A DNA stretch of 12,748 nt from Oscillospiraceae bacterium (GCA_031279125.1 JAITJC010000010.1:1-12748); one strand, 5' to 3'. Shown: positions 2,505 through 10,609, numbered from the stretch's first letter. A program made the numbers and translations. The notes: a model not told the origin generated them from the letters alone.

Positions 2505-2544
2505 AAACAACCCCCCGCCCGGAAACGGGCGGGGGGTTGTTTGT
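2505..2544 (+). terminator. Rho-independent terminator of the upstream surface-protein gene
   Basis: A perfect 17-bp stem pairs 2505-2521 (AAACAACCCCCCGCCCG) with 2526-2542 (CGGGCGGGGGGTTGTTT) around a GAAA loop (2522-2525). The T-rich tail TTGTTTGT partly lies within the 3' arm. The A-tract on the 5' side gives it a bidirectional look. Confidence 0.85.
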
Positions 2545-2567: not shown

Positions 2568-2596
2568 TTGACAACAGCGCCGGAACAGCATATACT
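2568..2596 (+). promoter_or_regulatory. Sigma-A/sigma-70-type promoter for the three-gene operon
   Basis: TTGACA lies at 2568-2573 and TATACT at 2591-2596, separated by an exact 17-nt spacer. It sits directly after the terminator and about 12-27 nt upstream of the candidate start codons. A G-rich SD-like element GGGGGAAGGTG follows at 2610-2620. Confidence 0.6.
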
Positions 2597-2607: not shown

Positions 2608-4542
2608 TTGGGGGAAGGTGTTGTGTTTGAGCCGGACACGGCGGTTAAGCCGAAACGTCTGATGGTCTACGCGCCCGATGCCGCAAGCGACATCTGCGCC
2701 AGCATGTTGAAAGATCGCAAGGTCATACTGTACGGCGCCGACGGCGTCGGGAGGACGGAACTGATGGTTCGCGTCCTTGATCGTTTGTTGCGTATGGGGA
2801 AAATGCGCGCCGGCGATTATCGCGTCCTCAACTACGTCGAAAGCTTCACGGAGACCGCCAAAGCCAACGCGCCGCCGGAGATTGCCGAAGAGAACGCCAT
2901 AAGCACCCTGTATGACCTGTTCGCGCGCGAGGGCAAATTTGTTTTCGCCGATAACATAGACAAGACAGTGCTTGAAGACTCGTCCCTGTGCTATCTGCTC
3001 GGGCTCAAAAACGTCCTGATCACGGCATCGGGCGCCGACGTTCTGGGCAAACACGACGGCGATTTCGTGAAGTACGAAATCGCGCTCCCGGACGAGCGGG
3101 AGTGCCGTCATCTGTTCGACGACCCCGACTCAACGGGCGGCGCGTACAATCCGTTCAGGCGTTTCGCCGCCCGCTCCAAAGACGAAAAGGAATTCGGCGA
3201 CTATGTTTTTGATACACTTTACCGGAAAACCGCCGGACACCCGATGGCTCTGCGCTTGGCTGATAAATTCGGCGAGGCGATGGGATACTATAATATAATA
3301 GACAGGATAAGCGAACTCGACATCGATATGCGGGGCGCGATATCTTCGCGTGAGGCGTTCGGGAAGATAATCGACCTGTATCTCGAATCGGACGCCTGCG
3401 ACGACGAGCAGCGGCGGATTTTGCGCCTTTTCTCACTTATGCCTTACCGTATGCTCCGCGAGGCCGATATCGCTTCGGTCACGGGCGGGAAATGCTCCTG
3501 CGCTTTGTCGAGGCTGGCCTCGGTATCGCTTATCCAAAGCCACCAAAGCCGCGGCGGCGGCATGTATTACGCCATCCATCCGATAATCGCGGAGGCGATC
3601 CGCGCGAACGGCATCGACATTGAGCTCTGCCGCGAGATTATTTACGATAAGCTCCAGACAAAGCTGTCGGAATTGCCGGGGGATGGGCTTTGCCGCTACG
3701 CGTGGATGACGCAGCTCGTCAAGTCGGCGGCGATGTACTATATGCACGACGCGCTCGGGCGGACGTATGACGATTCGCTCAGGGCGGCGCTGTTTTCGTG
3801 CCTCGGGACCATTTTTCGCAAACGCGGGAGCGCCGATAAGAACCATTACGAACGCGCCAAGACCTGGCTCAACCGCGCGCTCGACATACAAGAGAGGCTC
3901 GCGGAGGGTAAAACGCCCCCCCGCGCCCGGTTCGACCTCGCGGTCACGCTTTGCAATCTCGGGGAAATATACCTCGACGGCGAGCCCGAACGCGCGCGGG
4001 ACTTGCAGGAGTGGGCGCTGGAGCTGAAACGCGGGATACGCGACCCGAGCATCGAGAACATTGCGCTGCATGTCGCGAAAAGCTGCGCCATACTTGCTGA
4101 AACCCTGCGCAGATTATATCGCAGGACAGAGGACGACGAGGATTTGAAAAAGGCGTTCAAGCTACAAGCGGAAGCCGTTTCCCTGCTGGAGCGGTACGGC
4201 GGCGCGGAGGCGGGTATCGAACTGGCGGACATATATGAGAAGAAAGCCGAAGAGGCGCGTGACAACGGCAATATGAAACTCGCCATATATCATCAGCTTA
4301 CGGCGCGCGACTGCGTTATGAGGACTCTGGAAGCGGCTGAACCCGAAAAACCCGTAACCGCGGAACGCGCGAAACCGAGGAACGCCGGCTTTGAATGTGC
4401 CGTTCTGAATCACAGGCTGGTGAATGTGTGCGAACAGCTGTCCGATTTTTACTTTGACGCGGACGAATACGGACTGGCGCGTTTTTACAAGGAATTCGTT
4501 AACCGTGAACGCTCGGGAAGGGAGCGCGTGTATGGCGTCTGA
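2608..4542 (+). CDS. NB-ARC-like STAND NTPase-fold protein with C-terminal TPR-like repeats; Walker A/B degenerate (predicted pseudo-ATPase sensor/scaffold)
   Basis: The order of motifs matches AP-ATPase/NB-ARC. The P-loop-like ILYGADGVGRTEL lies at nt 2734-2757, with Arg49 (AGG 2752-2754) where the Walker A Lys belongs. The Walker B-like KFVFADNID lies at 2938-2961 and reads D-N instead of D-D/E. A 'TTR'-like VLITASG lies at 3013-3033 and a 'GxP/GLPLAL'-like TAGHPMALRLA at 3235-3252. Winged-helix-like motifs are LRLFSLMP, LASVSLIQ and YYAIHPIIAEAIR (MHD-like position). Helical TPR-like repeats span about 3770-4330 (e.g. YERAKTWLNRALDIQERL, DLAVTLCNLGEIYLDGEPERARDLQEWALEL). The start is uncertain: TTG 2608 is the longest ORF and GTG 2623 sits just after the SD-like element. 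The stop is TGA at 4540-4542. There is no N-terminal effector domain. Confidence 0.65.
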   Translation: MGEGVVFEPDTAVKPKRLMVYAPDAASDICASMLKDRKVILYGADGVGRTELMVRVLDRLLRMGKMRAGDYRVLNYVESFTETAKANAPPEIAEENAISTLYDLFAREGKFVFADNIDKTVLEDSSLCYLLGLKNVLITASGADVLGKHDGDFVKYEIALPDERECRHLFDDPDSTGGAYNPFRRFAARSKDEKEFGDYVFDTLYRKTAGHPMALRLADKFGEAMGYYNIIDRISELDIDMRGAISSREAFGKIIDLYLESDACDDEQRRILRLFSLMPYRMLREADIASVTGGKCSCALSRLASVSLIQSHQSRGGGMYYAIHPIIAEAIRANGIDIELCREIIYDKLQTKLSELPGDGLCRYAWMTQLVKSAAMYYMHDALGRTYDDSLRAALFSCLGTIFRKRGSADKNHYERAKTWLNRALDIQERLAEGKTPPRARFDLAVTLCNLGEIYLDGEPERARDLQEWALELKRGIRDPSIENIALHVAKSCAILAETLRRLYRRTEDDEDLKKAFKLQAEAVSLLERYGGAEAGIELADIYEKKAEEARDNGNMKLAIYHQLTARDCVMRTLEAAEPEKPVTAERAKPRNAGFECAVLNHRLVNVCEQLSDFYFDADEYGLARFYKEFVNRERSGRERVYGV

Positions 4543-6745
4543 CAAGTCTTACAAACAAATCCTGAGAATACAGGCCGGAAAGGAGTCTTCACTGTACCTT
4601 CCGGAAGGGGAGGAGTTGGAAGAAAGCCTTTTTTGGCCGTTGTTCCAACGCGCGAACGTACAATTAAATGAAATAATCGCCGCGTCGACGGACTATATCG
4701 GAAAGCATCCCGTTCAGCCGTCCTCCGTCCGGGATGGGGCGTATGAATCGCCGCTCGCAATCCCTCGCGTTCCTCACATTGCGAGCTATGCCGCGAACGT
4801 GATTGCCTTTTGCGGGGATCGCGGGCAGGGCAAAAGCTCCGCGATGCTGACTTACGCGAAGTATCTGAAAGCATTCTCGGAGAAGCCTTCGGAATACCGC
4901 GCCCCCGGCACGAATCCGCGCGGGGCGTCGTATTGCGTCCTCGACCGCATAAATCCGCAGCAATTGGAAGAGCATGAGGACATCCTGACAGAGGTCATGT
5001 CGATGATGCTTCAAAAACTGGAGCGAAAGATTGAACGCGACAATCTTTCCCCGGACTATTACGACGAGTTTTTGACGCTGCTGCGCGAGTGCGTGATGCT
5101 CATAAACTCGAAAAAATCTAAAAAAGACGTTGTGTCAGAACGCTTTGAGGACGAAATAACGGGGTTGCTTCACCGCGCCAGAAGCGCCGATCTGCGTTCG
5201 ATTTTCGCGGAGCTTGTCCATCTGTTTTTACTGTTGTTCTTCGGCAGAAAGACCGACGATAATGGCGCGGCGCTCGTCGTGCCTATCGACGACGTGGATC
5301 TCGACGTAAAGCGCGCGTACTCTGTGGCGCAGGAAATCCGCAAATATCTGGCGGTGCCGCGCGTTGTGGTGCTGATGGCTGTAAAGCCCGAACAGCTGCA
5401 GTGGGTCGTCAAGCAGCAGTACATAAGCGAGTGTATGGACATTCTGAAGTATGACAAAGAATTTGACGAGCATACGATCCGGGATATGGCCGCTAAGTAT
5501 ATGGACAAGTTTCTGCCCGACAGGCGCCGGGTGTATCTTTTAGATTTGTCTGTTTCCGGCACGGACATAACCTTTGAATATTTGGACGGCGACGGCAAAA
5601 CGCTTCTTTCTGCGCACGACGGCGTGGGTTACCGCAAAGCCGTCTGCGACTACGTATATCGTAAGACGGGGGTGAGGTTCTCTCACGCGGAAGAGCACTC
5701 GTCGTCGATTGTGCCGCGCAATATGCGGGATCTCGTCGAGTTCATGGGCTTTTTACATTCGATGAAGGACTTTCAAGCGGACGCGCCCGGACAGGGCGGG
5801 GCGGATACCGGTAAAAAGCCTGACAGAGCCGTGTGGCTATCGAACCTTCAGCGCTTGGAGGATTACATCACGAATTCCTACGCGCCTCGGCATTTGCGAA
5901 GCGTCGATCTGGATACGGTCAAGCGTATCGCGAAAGAGCCGCGTTTTGAAAAACACGAAATCGCGATAAGAGGGCTGATTAAGGTCTCTGAAAGCATCGT
6001 TGCCGACTCGGACGGGTTCAAACTGTGGCGAATAGCCTCAGGTGAAGCCGACCGTTCCGTATGGCAGGTGGCATCCAACGCGGCGTATTGTGAAAGCGTG
6101 CTTTGCAATGATTACATGTACTGTCTGTCGTTTGCCGTTTGCGCGCTGTACACTATTGAGGCGCTGCGGTTGCTGATAGCCGGTGAACGCCCGGCTTTTG
6201 ACGATTACAAGGCTTTTGTCGGAAAGTTTGATTTTAAAACGACATTCGCCGAAACGTCGACGAACTCGAATATGGTCGCGGAGATGTTTGAAGATTTGTT
6301 CGGCGAACGATTGGTTGATGCGGTGCGCGGCAATATTGAGAATAACGTGTTTTCGGACAGTACATTGCTGCTGTGCAACACGAATTTCGTGCTGGAATTG
6401 TTCCGCGAGCTTCAGAAAGAAATAAAATCGCTCAGCGATTTGGCTGAGGAGCCCGGTAAACTCGTTGACGAGATAAGATGCCGAGCAAAGAAAATCGCAA
6501 AGGACTTTGCGTATCCAAGGGATGAAAAAGAAAGCGGAGATCATATCTTCGACAGGCTGTTCGGCGACAAGGCAAAAGCATCCTTAGAGGACATACGGAA
6601 GAAAGCGCAGAAAGCGAAAGAGCAGAAAGCGAAGGAAGAAGGGGTGTCGCAGGCAGCTAAGGATGAGGTCGAGAAAAAGATAAAAACTCAGCAATCGGAA
6701 AATGTTTCAGGAGGCACAGAATCCCCGGGCGGCTCTCGGGAATGA
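4532..6745 (+). CDS. KAP-family P-loop NTPase (737 aa), positional equivalent of a RADAR RdrA-type ATPase
   Basis: ATG 4532 is preceded by AAGGGAG (4518-4524, 7-nt spacer) and overlaps the upstream stop by 11 nt. The ORF-track start at 4424 lies inside the previous gene and is unlikely. Walker A is intact as FCGDRGQGKSS (nt 4814-4837, Lys101). About 150 residues later comes a KAP-style Walker B block, ALVVPIDDVDLDVKRAYSVAQEIRKYLAVPRVVVLMAVKPEQLQWVVKQQY (from nt 5273, Asp253/254). This corresponds to the KAP consensus 'IDDLDR...vvfvla.d.e.l'. AAKYMDKFLPDRRRVYL follows it. The long insertion between Walker A and B is a KAP hallmark. The C-terminus is a Lys/Glu-rich low-complexity tail. Confidence 0.72.
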   Translation: MASDKSYKQILRIQAGKESSLYLPEGEELEESLFWPLFQRANVQLNEIIAASTDYIGKHPVQPSSVRDGAYESPLAIPRVPHIASYAANVIAFCGDRGQGKSSAMLTYAKYLKAFSEKPSEYRAPGTNPRGASYCVLDRINPQQLEEHEDILTEVMSMMLQKLERKIERDNLSPDYYDEFLTLLRECVMLINSKKSKKDVVSERFEDEITGLLHRARSADLRSIFAELVHLFLLLFFGRKTDDNGAALVVPIDDVDLDVKRAYSVAQEIRKYLAVPRVVVLMAVKPEQLQWVVKQQYISECMDILKYDKEFDEHTIRDMAAKYMDKFLPDRRRVYLLDLSVSGTDITFEYLDGDGKTLLSAHDGVGYRKAVCDYVYRKTGVRFSHAEEHSSSIVPRNMRDLVEFMGFLHSMKDFQADAPGQGGADTGKKPDRAVWLSNLQRLEDYITNSYAPRHLRSVDLDTVKRIAKEPRFEKHEIAIRGLIKVSESIVADSDGFKLWRIASGEADRSVWQVASNAAYCESVLCNDYMYCLSFAVCALYTIEALRLLIAGERPAFDDYKAFVGKFDFKTTFAETSTNSNMVAEMFEDLFGERLVDAVRGNIENNVFSDSTLLLCNTNFVLELFRELQKEIKSLSDLAEEPGKLVDEIRCRAKKIAKDFAYPRDEKESGDHIFDRLFGDKAKASLEDIRKKAQKAKEQKAKEEGVSQAAKDEVEKKIKTQQSENVSGGTESPGGSRE
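6607..6636 (+). repeat. Tandem 15-nt direct repeat inside the KE-rich tail of the KAP NTPase
   Basis: GCAGAAAGCGAAAGA (6607-6621) is followed directly by GCAGAAAGCGAAGGA (6622-6636), a 14/15 match. The pair encodes AQKAKEQKAKE. Confidence 0.8.
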
Positions 6746-6751
6746 GGCGTA

Positions 6752-9394
6752 ATGGGCGTACGGCGGAATAATCTGTTCGCTTATTTCAGGCGCGCGTCGG
6801 CGCCGGAGGCGTACAAATATCTCATGCTCCTTCTGCCCGGCGGGACGTCCTTTCCCGAATACGCGGCCGATAAAGAATATCTGACGTACAAGGGCGCGCC
6901 GTTCCGCCTTTTCCGCGAGTGGGCGCGCCGGGACGCCGCCCCGCTGACCACGGATTCGGAGCTTGCGACTTATCATCAGCGCGCCGAAGAGGATATGCGG
7001 GCGGAGAACGGGGACGGAACGCTGTTTCAGCTCCTGCTCGATTACGCGAGGCACAATCTGCGCTTTGACGACGGAACCCCGATGGTGAGGCACGACGATT
7101 TGCTCGGCTGGCAGGATATTACGACGCTGCTGGGGCAGGATTTGCTTGTATGCGCCTTTTTGGCGAAAAAGGACACGACAGGCACGCCCCGCGTATACGA
7201 TTTCACCTGGCCGGCGATTATCCCGAGCGACAACGCCGCGCTTCGCCGCGTGCTTGAAAAAGGGCTCGCCGAGAATCACGCGCATCTTTTCGCCGCGGCT
7301 CAGTATTTTGATTTGACGTGGAGCGCGCTGACGAACTTTTATGAGGAGATCGACGGCATCGCCGCGAAAATCACGGAAAATCTCAACGACGATCCGCAGG
7401 ATCTGTCCGCGAAGGACTGGCGGCTGTGGCTCCGGCGCGCCGCGCTTCTGCGCTGCGCGCTTTTCGGCGGGCCGGCGGGGCGGGACGCGGGGTATGGTCT
7501 GCTGCGGAGCGAGCTCAAAGCCCCCGATGCCGCGCGCGAATATCCGAACCGCATAGGGATGCTCCGGAATAAGTTCGGCTTCAGGTTCCCGGAATACAAT
7601 CAGCCGTACGATTACGCGTTTACGGCCTCGCTCGCGCGGGATAATATCGGGCATCCGAACCGCGCCCTCGCGGGGGAGCGGCATTTCCTCTATATGTGCT
7701 TCCGGGGAGTTTTCACCGGCGCGTTCGGCGGCGCGCAGCGCCAGATGTTCTATTTATATCTGCTGATAAAGTCCCGGTTTCGGGGAGAGCTCGTGCACTC
7801 CAACCGGCGCGCCGGCTTCGACAACTTCGCGCGATTTCACAATCGCAACGCCATCATTCCCGATAATTCGATGTACGGCGGGGAGCGGATATGCCTCGCA
7901 ATCAATTCCACGTTGCGGGACGGGAGCATAAAATCGCTTGAGCTGCGGGTCTCCCCGCGCGCGAAGGCGTCCGAAAACATTATAAACCTGGAAAAAATCG
8001 TGAGCGCCCAAGACAGCTTAGGCCGTTCGGGCAAGCGGCGCGGCAGCCCGTTTAACGTCCGCCCGGCGAACGGCGCGCCGGTTCCGAAGAATCCGGAGCA
8101 AGAATTCTTTTTCGTATATCATCTGCCGAAGGGCAAAGAGACGCCCCCGAAGCTTTCCGACACACTCGGCGGAGGGCTTTGCCTCACGCCGCGCAACTGC
8201 CGCGAGCGCTCCGCGAGCCGCGACAAGGTGCTCGCAATCGCCGAAATGCTGAATAGGTACAGGCGCGCATGGACGTGGATACGCGGGATTGACGGTTGCT
8301 CGGCGGAAATAGGCTGCCGCCCGGAGGTCATGGCGCACGCCATACGCTTTATCTCGAATTTCGCGCCGAACCCTCCGGTAAAGAGCGTCCTTTTCGTGGA
8401 AAAGCGCCGCCCGCCGCGAATAGGTAAGACGTTTCACGCCGGGGAGGATTTCCTCGACCTCGTTGACGGTCTCCGCGCGGTTGACGAGGCCATGCTGTTT
8501 TTAAATCTCGGGCGCGGGGACAGACTGGGGCACGCCGTCGCGCTCGGGCTTGACGCGGAGGAATACTACAGGCGCAAAGCGTCAAAAATCACGCTGCGGA
8601 AGCAGGACACTCTCGACAACCTCACGTGGATGCTGTGCCGCTCGGCGGAGCTTGGCGTGCGGGTCAAGCAGGATCTGGACAGCCGCCTGCGAGGCATCGC
8701 CGGGCGCATAGCGCAGGAGCTTTACGGCGGCACGGAAATGTCTCCGGAGAAGTTCGACCTCCACAATTATTTCCGCGCTTGGAAGCTCCGGGGGGACGAC
8801 CCTTACGCCTATTTTTCCGGCGGTTACAAAAGCGCGGAAAAACAAAACCGGGGCATTTTGAAGCACGCGCAGGAGTATATGGACTACGCGCTGAACGGCG
8901 ACGGCGAGATAACGTTCTGCCGGAACGACGAGGTCGCGGCAAGGCTCTGCAAGGCGTACCATTTTTTCGGCAAGGTTCGGACAGAGGGAAACAAAATCTG
9001 CTCGTTCGCCGTAGCCGAGGATTTCGTCGCGCTGGCGCGGGAGCTTCAGGCGGCCATGCGCCGCCGCGTATCCGACAAGGATATAGCGGTGGAGACGAAC
9101 CCGACATCAAACAAGCTGATTTCCACGTTCGGCAGGTATGACAAGCACCCCATATTCACGTTTTACAGCCGGCATCTTGACAAGGCGGCAGGGCCGCAGC
9201 TTTACGTGTCCGTGAATACGGACGACCAGGGGGTGTTTTCCACGTCGCTCAGGAATGAATACGCCCTTCTGAGCCGCGCTCTGGAGCTCGTCCCGGACGC
9301 CGGCGGCGCGGAGCGCTATTCCCGTCCGCAAATCCGCGACTGGATCGACGACGTCCGCGAGATGGGGATGTCGCAGACATTCCCCGCCACGTAA
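6752..9394 (+). CDS. Giant adenosine/AMP deaminase-fold protein (880 aa), RdrB-like candidate nucleotide deaminase effector
   Basis: All amidohydrolase/ADA signature elements are present in the right order. The HxH motif is in LAENHAHLF (His176/His178, nt 7277-7285). HAGE is in KTFHAGEDF (His562/Glu565, nt 8435-8446). The GH motif is in RLGHAVALG (His594, nt 8531-8533). VSVNTDDQGVF (Asp824/825, nt 9212-9226) matches the ADA/AMPD signature [SA]-[LIVM]-[NGS]-[STA]-D-D-P except for P to Q. The ATG at 6752 lies 6 nt after the upstream stop, with a GAGG at 6744-6747. The stop is TAA at 9392-9394. Confidence 0.85.
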   Translation: MGVRRNNLFAYFRRASAPEAYKYLMLLLPGGTSFPEYAADKEYLTYKGAPFRLFREWARRDAAPLTTDSELATYHQRAEEDMRAENGDGTLFQLLLDYARHNLRFDDGTPMVRHDDLLGWQDITTLLGQDLLVCAFLAKKDTTGTPRVYDFTWPAIIPSDNAALRRVLEKGLAENHAHLFAAAQYFDLTWSALTNFYEEIDGIAAKITENLNDDPQDLSAKDWRLWLRRAALLRCALFGGPAGRDAGYGLLRSELKAPDAAREYPNRIGMLRNKFGFRFPEYNQPYDYAFTASLARDNIGHPNRALAGERHFLYMCFRGVFTGAFGGAQRQMFYLYLLIKSRFRGELVHSNRRAGFDNFARFHNRNAIIPDNSMYGGERICLAINSTLRDGSIKSLELRVSPRAKASENIINLEKIVSAQDSLGRSGKRRGSPFNVRPANGAPVPKNPEQEFFFVYHLPKGKETPPKLSDTLGGGLCLTPRNCRERSASRDKVLAIAEMLNRYRRAWTWIRGIDGCSAEIGCRPEVMAHAIRFISNFAPNPPVKSVLFVEKRRPPRIGKTFHAGEDFLDLVDGLRAVDEAMLFLNLGRGDRLGHAVALGLDAEEYYRRKASKITLRKQDTLDNLTWMLCRSAELGVRVKQDLDSRLRGIAGRIAQELYGGTEMSPEKFDLHNYFRAWKLRGDDPYAYFSGGYKSAEKQNRGILKHAQEYMDYALNGDGEITFCRNDEVAARLCKAYHFFGKVRTEGNKICSFAVAEDFVALARELQAAMRRRVSDKDIAVETNPTSNKLISTFGRYDKHPIFTFYSRHLDKAAGPQLYVSVNTDDQGVFSTSLRNEYALLSRALELVPDAGGAERYSRPQIRDWIDDVREMGMSQTFPAT

Positions 9395-9445: not shown

Positions 9446-10609
9446 ATGCGGGAACCGAGGAAAAACGGAAGCGGCGCGGGCGGCGACGGCACAGGCGGAT
9501 GGATAGCGACTATTGTGATGCTCCTTCTGTTCTGGCCGGTCGGGCTGATAATGCTGATAAACAGGCTTCACACCGCCGCGCGCACCGCATACGTCCGGCC
9601 CCCCGTCCGCGCCCCGGGAAAGACGGAGGGCGCGAAGGACGCGGGTGAACGGAAGCCGGGGGCGGGGGAACCCGCGCCCGTGACGGCGTCTGCTCGCCTT
9701 GAAAAGGAACTGCGGACCGCCAAGAGATATTCGCGCTTGCTCGCCGTCGCGGCGGCGCTCGCGCTGGCGGGAGGGGGGTATACGCTCGCGTCCTCCGTCC
9801 GCGAGCTCGCGATGGGCGGGGCGTGGCTGCGCGATATGCTCACCGGCGCGTTTTACGGCGTCGGCGGGGCGGTCGTCCTCGGCGCGCGCGGGCTTTTGCC
9901 GGGCAGAGCGCGTCTGCGCCGCCGCTATCTCGCAAAGCTCGGCGCGAGCCGCGTCATGCGCGTTTCGGAATTCGCGTCCGCGCTCGGCAGGAGCGAAAGG
10001 AACGTCCGGCGGGAGCTTCAGGCGATGATAGACGACGGGTATTTCGGCGGCGGGGCGTACATAGATTCGCGTCTCGGCGCGCTCGTGCTCAACGCCTCGG
10101 ATGTCCCCGCCGCGGAGGCGGGCGCGGACACGGCGCCCGCCTCCGCGGCGCCCCGGCGGACGGAACTTTCGGAGTACGACCGCGTTCTGACCGAACTGAG
10201 AAGCTTGAACGAAAAAATATCCGACCCGGGGATATCGCGTAAAATCGAGCGCGTGGAATCCGCCTCGGCGAAAATTTTCGCCGCCGTGCGGGAGAATCCG
10301 GACAAGCTGCCGCAGATACGCCGTTTTATGAGCTATTACCTCCCGACGGCGCTGAAACTCCTGCGCTCCTACGCCACGCTGGAGCGGCAGGGCATCCGGG
10401 GGGAGAACATCACCTCGGCGAAGGAGAGCATAGACCGCGTGCTCGGGACGCTGGCGGCGGGTTTCGAGCGCCAGCTTGACAGGCTGTTCCGCTCGGATGT
10501 CATCGACATAAGCTCTGATATAGACGTGCTTGAGGGTATGCTGGCGCGCGACGGGCTATCGGAGGCCTCGCCGTTCAGAAGCCGGACATCCTCCGGGGAG
10601 ATAGTATAA
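9446..10609 (+). CDS. Membrane protein with wHTH-like segment and XpaC-like (5-bromo-4-chloroindolyl phosphate hydrolysis family, PF10112-like) C-terminal helical domain
   Basis: GGAGG at 9431-9435 lies upstream of ATG 9446. Hydrophobic segments are WIATIVMLLLFWPVGLIMLI, LLAVAAALALAGGGYTL and AFYGVGGAVVLGARGLL. An HTH-like stretch reads MRVSEFASALGRSERNVRRELQAMIDDGYF. The C-terminal LPQIRRFMSYYLPTALKLLRSYATLERQG resembles, from memory, the conserved YYLP..LKLL..Y core of the XpaC family. The gene is very GC-rich compared with the upstream operon. Confidence 0.5.
   Translation: MREPRKNGSGAGGDGTGGWIATIVMLLLFWPVGLIMLINRLHTAARTAYVRPPVRAPGKTEGAKDAGERKPGAGEPAPVTASARLEKELRTAKRYSRLLAVAAALALAGGGYTLASSVRELAMGGAWLRDMLTGAFYGVGGAVVLGARGLLPGRARLRRRYLAKLGASRVMRVSEFASALGRSERNVRRELQAMIDDGYFGGGAYIDSRLGALVLNASDVPAAEAGADTAPASAAPRRTELSEYDRVLTELRSLNEKISDPGISRKIERVESASAKIFAAVRENPDKLPQIRRFMSYYLPTALKLLRSYATLERQGIRGENITSAKESIDRVLGTLAAGFERQLDRLFRSDVIDISSDIDVLEGMLARDGLSEASPFRSRTSSGEIV

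Follow-up and report, generated by a model that had tools for sequence, protein, structure and literature searches.

A 12,748-nucleotide (nt) stretch of DNA from an Oscillospiraceae bacterium (GCA_031279125.1 JAITJC010000010.1:1-12748), referred to throughout as the window, contains three co-oriented genes, B, C and D, of which C and D are very likely the rdrA-rdrB pair of a RADAR anti-phage system, with a mechanism that can be read by homology with the characterised systems. The pair is a divergent but bona fide member of this known system. The zinc and catalytic site of D, the deaminase, is intact, and the protein carries insertions of the RdrB type. The co-oriented rdrA-like gene C directly adjoins D and has an intact ATPase site of its own, and the genes are tightly coupled as an operon. 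The assembly, substrate, trigger and defence phenotype of the window system we infer from characterised homologues. RdrB is the ATP-deaminating effector of RADAR; in Escherichia coli it is a hollow dodecamer that docks RdrA heptamers (PMC9994260). By homology, the RdrB of the window would form a hollow multimer built through its three insertions, RdrA ATPase rings would dock onto it, and poisoning of the nucleotide pool would abort the infection.

The deaminase gene D and the RdrB family

An earlier note on this DNA had described an open reading frame (ORF) of 880 amino acids (aa) with four groups of metal-binding and catalytic motifs of the adenosine deaminase (ADA) type. A scan of the window, in which D is the longest ORF at its place, and a motif search confirmed the frame and all four motif groups at the following positions:

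6752..9394, + strand: gene D, the probable rdrB (RADAR adenosine deaminase); 880 aa from an ATG start, beginning 6 nt past the rdrA stop
7277..7285, + strand: codons of H176-A-H178, the first two zinc ligands, equivalent to E. coli RdrB H152/H154 (motif search; profile alignment 'ETHQHLNGST'; roles from PMC9994260)
8435..8446, + strand: codons of H562-A-G-E565, the third zinc ligand and the catalytic glutamate, equivalent to E. coli RdrB H498/E501 (motif search; roles from PMC9994260)
8528..8533, + strand: codons of G593-H594, the last catalytic histidine, equivalent to E. coli RdrB H530 (motif search; roles from PMC9994260)
9218..9226, + strand: codons of T823-D824-D825, the C-terminal Asp-Asp motif of the ADA fold, aligning with 'GSDDPGIF' of E. 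coli RdrB

The zinc ligands of E. coli RdrB are H152, H154, H498 and H530, and its catalytic glutamate is E501 (PMC9994260). D likewise has an ADA-type active site in which the four zinc histidines and the catalytic glutamate are all present. In an alignment of 34 homologues, H176, H178, H562, G564, E565, G593, H594, T823, D824 and D825 are invariant, and since these homologues are only 28-51% identical to D, the motifs are conserved and are not chance matches. The spacing of the motifs is as unusual as had been noted: 175 residues precede the HxH motif, 384 separate H178 from H562, and 229 separate H594 from T823. RdrB consists of an ADA core with three insertions, namely an N-terminal extension, one that splits the core and one after the last catalytic histidine (PMC9994260; Duncan-Lowey et al., 2023), and the three unusual spacings of D are these three insertions.

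Profile searches and the predicted fold both lead to RdrB. The best NCBIfam family for D is RdrB (NF041744, E 2.3e-42), compared with 1.5e-8 for the best ADA model, and PADLOC also calls it RdrB (E 1.5e-24). A phmmer search of D against the chains in the PDB finds E. coli RdrB (8fnv, 8fnw, 8hr7 and 8hrc; E 3.8e-19), in the C-terminal half only. A profile of the 34-member family aligns with E. coli RdrB (8fnv) at E 4.5e-65, collinearly over residues 49-228 and 288-771 of 798, and the alignment takes in the HxH region and all three insertions. The AlphaFold2 monomer model of D, built on the 34-member alignment, has a mean predicted local distance difference test score (pLDDT) of 86.6 and a predicted template modelling score (pTM) of 0.89. 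When this model is compared with the PDB by Foldseek, the eight best matches are RdrB chains (E about 1e-25, 870-929 alignment columns), with template modelling (TM) scores of 0.64-0.69 when normalised to the query and 0.73-0.78 when normalised to the target. The next folds are human ADAL, Cad1 and the Plasmodium and bacterial ADA, at a TM of about 0.25, and AMPD2 at about 0.10. The same comparison indicates that the insertions that make the interfaces in E. coli RdrB are present in D. The earlier note had suggested a deaminase of the RdrB kind, expanded like the oligomeric RADAR proteins and plausibly acting on adenine nucleotides in abortive infection, and NCBIfam, PADLOC, the family profile, the predicted fold and the adjacent rdrA all agree with the RdrB identity; in the structural comparison of the D model with RdrB, ADA and AMPD, RdrB came out best.

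D and the RdrB of E. coli P0304799.3 (8fnv, 8fnw, 8hr7 and 8hrc) thus have in common the ADA barrel, the four-histidine zinc site, the catalytic glutamate and the three insertions, with a whole-chain TM of 0.64-0.78, although their structure-based identity is 16-17% and they differ in length (880 aa in D, ~800 aa in E. coli RdrB). Another ADA-fold defence enzyme is Cad1, the CARF-fused protein of type III CRISPR systems that converts ATP to inosine triphosphate (ITP). It gives a weak PADLOC match to residues 768-842 of D, with the TM of about 0.25 given above, but D has no CARF domain and is unlinked to CRISPR, and the RdrB insertions are absent from Cad1.

A protein identical to D is present in the database as hypothetical protein LBD49_00565 of an Oscillospiraceae metagenome-assembled genome, on a 12,877-bp contig. 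The database search returned 73 relatives at E <= 1e-5, nearly all of them full-length (70, with 860-953 aa). Together with one close relative (P0002, 49% identical), D forms an isolated sub-lineage, with at most 38% identity to all others.

The partner gene C and its pairing with rdrB

The earlier note had also placed two NTPase genes upstream of D. Both are present: C, next to D, is a KAP/AAA+ gene of the RdrA type, and B is an NB-ARC-like STAND gene with TPR repeats. The features of C are as follows:

4532..6745, + strand: gene C, the probable rdrA, an AAA+/KAP-type ATPase; 737 aa, its ATG at 4532 overlapping the stop of B by 11 nt
4814-4837, + strand: Walker A motif GDRGQGKS of C, residues 95-102, with K101; invariant
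5288-5293, + strand: Walker B DD of C, D253/D254; invariant
5726-5728, + strand: Arg399 of C; invariant

The start at ATG 4532 is backed by the junction sequence and by the homologous gene call in a related locus (L088, described below). The Walker A motif, D253-D254 and R399 are invariant in alignments of 26-61 homologues, and their counterparts in E. coli RdrA are K82, D221/D222 and R377 (PMC9994260). C thus has an AAA+ core with a GK[ST] Walker A, a Walker B DD and a sensor-2 arginine. It matches the NCBIfam RdrA model at E 5.7e-16 and is also RdrA in PADLOC, while its match to KAP_NTPase is weak. A profile of 26 homologues of C aligns with Streptococcus suis RdrA (8fnu) at E 9.7e-40, over residues 56-842 of 907, and with E. 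coli RdrA (8hr7_A, 8fnt) at E 1.7e-23, over the AAA+ domain.

The nearer of the two characterised relatives is that of S. suis SS993, whose RADAR defends E. coli against T2, T4 and T6. Both hosts are Firmicutes, and the RdrA of the window clade aligns with S. suis RdrA over nearly its whole length, although the S. suis protein has 907 aa against 737 aa in the window, where the C-terminal region is shortened and divergent. With E. coli RdrA (8fnt, 8hr7) the similarity is confined to the AAA+ domain, and the window differs further in adding an upstream STAND-TPR gene.

Related loci came from two sources: the species-level loci are the best 80 fetched with the RdrB family from a one-genome-per-species collection, and the others are from metagenomes. 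Every locus with enough upstream DNA has an rdrA-like gene immediately before its rdrB-like gene, and these rdrA-like genes form one cluster (82 sequences, including a few split genes). The genes around the pair vary from locus to locus. At some loci rdrA is present as two adjacent ORFs (L055, 5376-7792; L063, 5522-7906; L035, 4812-7737; L076, 191-3282). In one of these, Flavobacterium sinopsychrotolerans (L055), the two parts have 317 and 486 aa, and the 317-aa piece has been entered as RdrA in Table S1 of PMC9994260. The split ORFs may be frameshifts or pseudogenes, or they may be genuine two-part RdrA proteins.

Several observations weigh against the assignment of C and D to RADAR. D scores 145.5 bits with NF041744, compared with a cut-off of 800, and the match is confined to residues 506-875; C scores 58.1 bits with the NCBIfam RdrA model, for which the cut-off is 600. 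The low score of D is due to the narrowness of the model and does not place D outside the RdrB family, because the validated RADAR systems of E. coli, Citrobacter rodentium and S. suis are equally far apart (24-28% mutual identity, C-terminal only; PMC9994260). The correspondence of D with RdrB in the N-terminal part comes from the family profile and the predicted fold, since single-sequence matches reach the C-terminal half only. RdrA has a large alpha-helical C-terminal domain, and the family profile follows S. suis RdrA as far as residue 842, but the C-terminal region of C is ~100-190 residues shorter than that of most relatives and lacks that many majority columns after residue 600, in a region that is poorly conserved and uncertain in alignment; for this reason the sensing or regulatory part of C may work differently. 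Finally, the neighbourhood in the window consists of sporulation and envelope genes, with no recognisable defence island.

Gene B and the slot upstream of rdrA

Upstream of C, the window has the following features:

2608..4542, + strand: gene B, encoding a STAND NTPase of NB-ARC-like type that carries TPR repeats; 644 aa if read from TTG 2608, or 639 aa from GTG 2623 (Joint Genome Institute call)
2734-2757, + strand: Walker A motif GADGVGRT of B, in which Arg replaces the canonical Lys (alignment)
2950-2955, + strand: Walker B-like DN of B (alignment)
3235-3252, + strand: GxP motif GHPMAL of B (alignment)
2505..2542, + strand: perfect 17-bp hairpin with a 4-nt loop, followed by a T-rich tract; the inverted repeat is 100% complementary, and the terminator scan flagged the minus strand
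2568..2596, + strand: sigma-70-like promoter, TTGACA-17-TATACT, with 11/12 matches; the best site in the region, by consensus match only

B has the features of NB-ARC-type STAND proteins: a P-loop, a helical/winged-helix module with GxP and a C-terminal repeat array. In Pfam it matches TPR_12, and it aligns with relatives, the more distant ones, that bear Pfam NB-ARC, AAA_16 or AAA_22. Its AlphaFold model is of moderate quality (pLDDT 74). The top Foldseek matches are CED-4, SAMD9, EfAvs5, AVAST5 and RPP1, and those of the C-terminal half are KLC TPR domains; the global TM is low, about 0.26. No effector domain was found in B with Pfam, PADLOC or NCBIfam, the P-loop beginning at residue 43 and the TPR array forming the C-terminal end. 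B thus resembles the Avs/AVAST and CED-4/Apaf-1 NB-ARC proteins in its P-loop, its GxP-bearing helical/winged-helix module and its sensor-like C-terminal TPR array. In Avs/AVAST, however, the effector is fused to the STAND module, whereas B has no effector, has Arg in Walker A and is translationally coupled to rdrA.

Full-length relatives of B are few. An exhaustive HMMER search of 1.84 billion representatives returned 3-4 full-length relatives, a word-indexed search returned one, and a metagenome scan one distant, unlinked locus. L088 is the only other locus that has a close full-length homologue of B with further DNA after it. It repeats the B-rdrA-rdrB order, again with an overlap of 11 nt, and its genes are 55% (B), 55% (C) and 70% (the start of D) identical to those of the window. 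The L088 relative also has Arg in Walker A (GTDGAGRT), and more distant relatives keep GKT; the sequences suggest that hydrolysis of nucleoside triphosphates may be altered or lost in the RADAR-linked lineage of B. In L090, the relative of B (34% identical) is followed by promoter-like sequence in place of an overlapping rdrA, and the contig ends 71 nt after the gene. The distant relatives in L091, L092 and L095 are not beside RADAR. In L092 (1918-4461 and 4566-5195), the distant relative of B (NB-ARC and TPR, 847 aa) is beside a ToxN toxin gene and several RelB/YafQ pairs, a context that is a defence or toxin-antitoxin island without RADAR.

The hairpin at 2505-2542 is, from its sequence, a probable terminator of the preceding gene A, which would set A apart from the cassette, and the site at 2568-2596 is a candidate promoter of a B-C-D operon. 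The terminator scan found no convincing + strand terminator inside the cassette; two weak stem-loops are present (3775-3787 and 5514-5533), a number within chance expectation. B very probably shares a transcript with C and D. It may act as an added sensor or regulator of RADAR. In the accessory subtypes of RADAR summarised in PMC7699616, a small membrane protein of the Csx27 (rdrC) or SLATT (rdrD) family is encoded beside rdrAB, and neither the PADLOC models for RADAR accessories nor the Pfam models for SLATT and Csx27 matched genes A, B or E of the window. Our literature search found no description of a STAND- or TPR-associated RADAR, and a search on the names RdrC and RdrD returned unrelated acronyms only.

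The slot that B occupies is also filled in related loci. A conserved but uncharacterised family (alignment A4; 590-730 aa) has a gene directly upstream of rdrA in 21 of the 80 species loci, L008-L087; members of this family include L001 5523-7346, L007 5506-7452, L020 3505-5349, L024 2988-4892 and L041 535-2370. The genes are 9-243 nt from rdrA and come from Lachnospiraceae, Oscillospiraceae, Bacteroides and Muribaculaceae. This ~610-aa family has no match in Pfam or PADLOC, and its only match in the PDB is a SAVED-domain chain at E 0.17. Its N-terminal consensus, '...G.FP.ILLCDD...HGR', may resemble the phosphoribosyl pyrophosphate (PRPP) loop of phosphoribosyltransferases. A second upstream family, of ~420-480 aa, is present in 6-7 loci (L004 6036-7382; L062, L071, L072, L078, L080, L085), and its C-terminal half is TPR-like, by eye and by a weak TPR_7 match. 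Kinship of B with the upstream genes of other loci was ruled out, as phmmer, a family hidden Markov model and hhalign all gave no similarity. The slot 5' of rdrA thus holds at least three unrelated families.

Alternative readings, neighbourhood and distribution

The presence of B allows a reading in which RADAR has three components and B is obligatory: its TPR array would recognise a phage protein and signal to the shortened RdrA, which would in turn activate RdrB. Such a scheme extends the RADAR explanation without contradicting it, and we regard it as possible, though somewhat short of an even chance. The overlap between the B stop and the rdrA start, seen at the junction in the window and repeated in L088 with the same gene order, speaks for it, as do the promoter-like site and hairpin terminator just upstream of B together with the lack of a convincing + strand terminator within the cassette. 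B, with a P-loop that starts at residue 43, has no effector domain and would therefore need a partner; RdrA is short in exactly the two loci that carry B (737 aa in the window and 707 aa in L088, while the remaining members of alignment A3 have 789-1002 aa); and many further loci of the clade have an extra gene at this position. The association of B with RADAR is, however, seen in two loci only. Its distant relatives in L091, L092 and L095 are unlinked to RADAR and that in L090 has promoter-like sequence where rdrA would overlap, the Lys-to-Arg change in Walker A may mean a crippled NTPase, the extra slot genes of other loci are unrelated to B, and RdrA and RdrB suffice in every RADAR system characterised (PMC9994260). 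More tentative still is the generalisation that an as yet undescribed three-gene RADAR subtype exists, in which an effector-less NB-ARC/TPR protein B senses phage and is coupled to a shortened RdrA, and that the slot 5' of rdrA is swappable among sensors in the Clostridia/Bacteroidota clade.

Other readings concern the activity of D itself. In the original model of Gao et al. (2020), the deaminase edits RNA from adenosine to inosine (A-to-I) in host or phage transcripts. A-to-I editing was first proposed for C. rodentium RADAR (summarised in PMC7699616 and PMC9994260), for which a minor A-to-G signature was seen, but D has a TIM-barrel of the ADA/AMPD type, and its deaminase-fold Foldseek matches at E <= 0.1 are all deaminases of mononucleotides or nucleosides, none of them of the ADAR or TadA type. 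Published data also disfavour RNA editing (PMC9994260), and we consider it improbable for D. It is very improbable that D is a signalling deaminase whose product, a modified nucleotide such as deoxyinosine triphosphate (dITP), is a second messenger that acts on a separate effector. The enzyme behind such nucleobase-modification signalling is reportedly an adenosine deaminase. Anti-phage immune signalling of this kind is reported in a preprint (bioRxiv 10.1101/2024.12.20.629578), but no conserved candidate for a downstream effector is found beside the pair, the flanking genes differing in every locus examined, and D has the RdrB-specific insertions and an RdrA partner. The most improbable reading makes D a housekeeping purine-salvage deaminase, acting on adenosine, adenine or AMP, that stands beside NTPase genes by chance. 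Pfam A_deaminase and several NCBIfam ADA models do match D, at residues 768-848, yet these matches cover ~80 residues with E 1e-8 or worse and reach 20-34 bits against cut-offs of 216-530. The whole-chain fold is that of RdrB (TM 0.64-0.78; ADA reaches about 0.25 and AMPD2 0.10), and the D-type gene is always paired with rdrA, in unrelated neighbourhoods across genomes. The fold, the scores and the invariable pairing exclude a housekeeping role, and the view of the earlier note that D is not a metabolic ADA or AMPD was borne out, with no grouping with housekeeping AMP deaminases. The identification of C and D as the rdrA-rdrB pair of a RADAR system thus remains the preferred reading.

The genes on either side of the B-C-D cassette are:

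148-2481, + strand: gene A, an ORF of 777 aa with a high content of Thr, Ser, Gly, Val and Tyr
9446-10609, + strand: gene E, starting 51 nt past rdrB; PF10112 (XpaC / 5-bromo-4-chloroindolyl phosphate hydrolysis), E 1.8e-19

Gene A has no match in Pfam, NCBIfam, PADLOC or PHROGs and may be a surface or adhesin-like protein. Gene E has hydrophobic N-terminal stretches by eye and is an apparent membrane protein. It was considered as a membrane accessory of RADAR and rejected: it is PF10112 (XpaC-like) and not SLATT or Csx27, and it has no counterpart beside rdrB in L089, the closest relative of D. E is probably a neighbour with a housekeeping function. The G+C content is 0.52 in rdrA, 0.61 in rdrB and 0.63-0.66 in the downstream genes, and the low value of rdrA is consistent with horizontal acquisition of the cassette. 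This low value is the only hint that the cassette might lie in an integrated element; a scan of the window for tRNA genes found none, and no direct repeats that convincingly flank the cassette were detected.

Relatives of D are common: in the one-genome-per-species collection, 600 pattern-matching stretches were examined and at least 558 of them encode one. The best 80 loci are mostly from gut Lachnospiraceae and Oscillospiraceae, with some from Bacteroidota. The RADAR clade of the window occurs in Clostridia, Bacteroidota and Fusobacteria and is nearer to the S. suis RADAR than to that of E. coli. The F. sinopsychrotolerans locus (L055; strain CGMCC 1.8704) has an RdrB of 870 aa that is 33% identical to D over ~800 residues, and it matches an entry listed as RADAR in Table S1 of PMC9994260 exactly, both in coordinates (74077-79098) and in the sizes of its genes (317 and 870 aa). 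Since this is the exact locus, the window clade is already catalogued as RADAR. The RdrB of this locus and that of the Aureibacter tunicatorum plasmid pAT1 each share 32-33% identity with D across ~800 residues (E about 1e-135), and the order, rdrA and then rdrB, is the same as in the window. They differ from the window, with its upstream STAND-TPR gene, in having no accessory or a downstream SLATT gene. On pAT1 the SLATT gene overlaps the rdrB stop, an arrangement that belongs to the known SLATT-associated subtype of RADAR from Gao et al. (2020), summarised in PMC7699616. In pAT1, the one annotated clade member that we examined, the NCBI Prokaryotic Genome Annotation Pipeline (PGAP) names both genes of the rdrA/rdrB-like pair 'hypothetical protein'.

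The search of plasmid sequences gave 8 matches to D, among them one annotated rdrB and one with a SLATT neighbour, and a search of phage sequences gave no match to D. D shares 27% identity, over its residues 510-873, with the rdrB that PGAP annotates on the Aliivibrio plasmid pVSAL840; the validated RADAR systems resemble one another to the same level and extent. Beside rdrAB on this plasmid (Aliivibrio salmonicida pVSAL840, L093 7250-11451) is a cluster of a GTPase and a 'GTPase-associated system all-helical protein GASH', with an IS30 transposase; together they make up a small defence island, carried by a conjugative plasmid.

What could be new here is confined to the STAND-TPR gene that is coupled to rdrA and to the slot upstream of rdrA, with its variable content in related loci. 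The RADAR of the window escapes standard annotation, its protein being deposited as 'hypothetical' and its RdrA and RdrB reaching about a tenth and about a fifth, respectively, of the NCBIfam cut-offs. Because the clade is common, RADAR may be less rare than the reported <1% of genomes. The STAND-TPR gene coupled to rdrA, and the other conserved upstream genes, would be candidates for the sensing step of RADAR, if they are part of the system.

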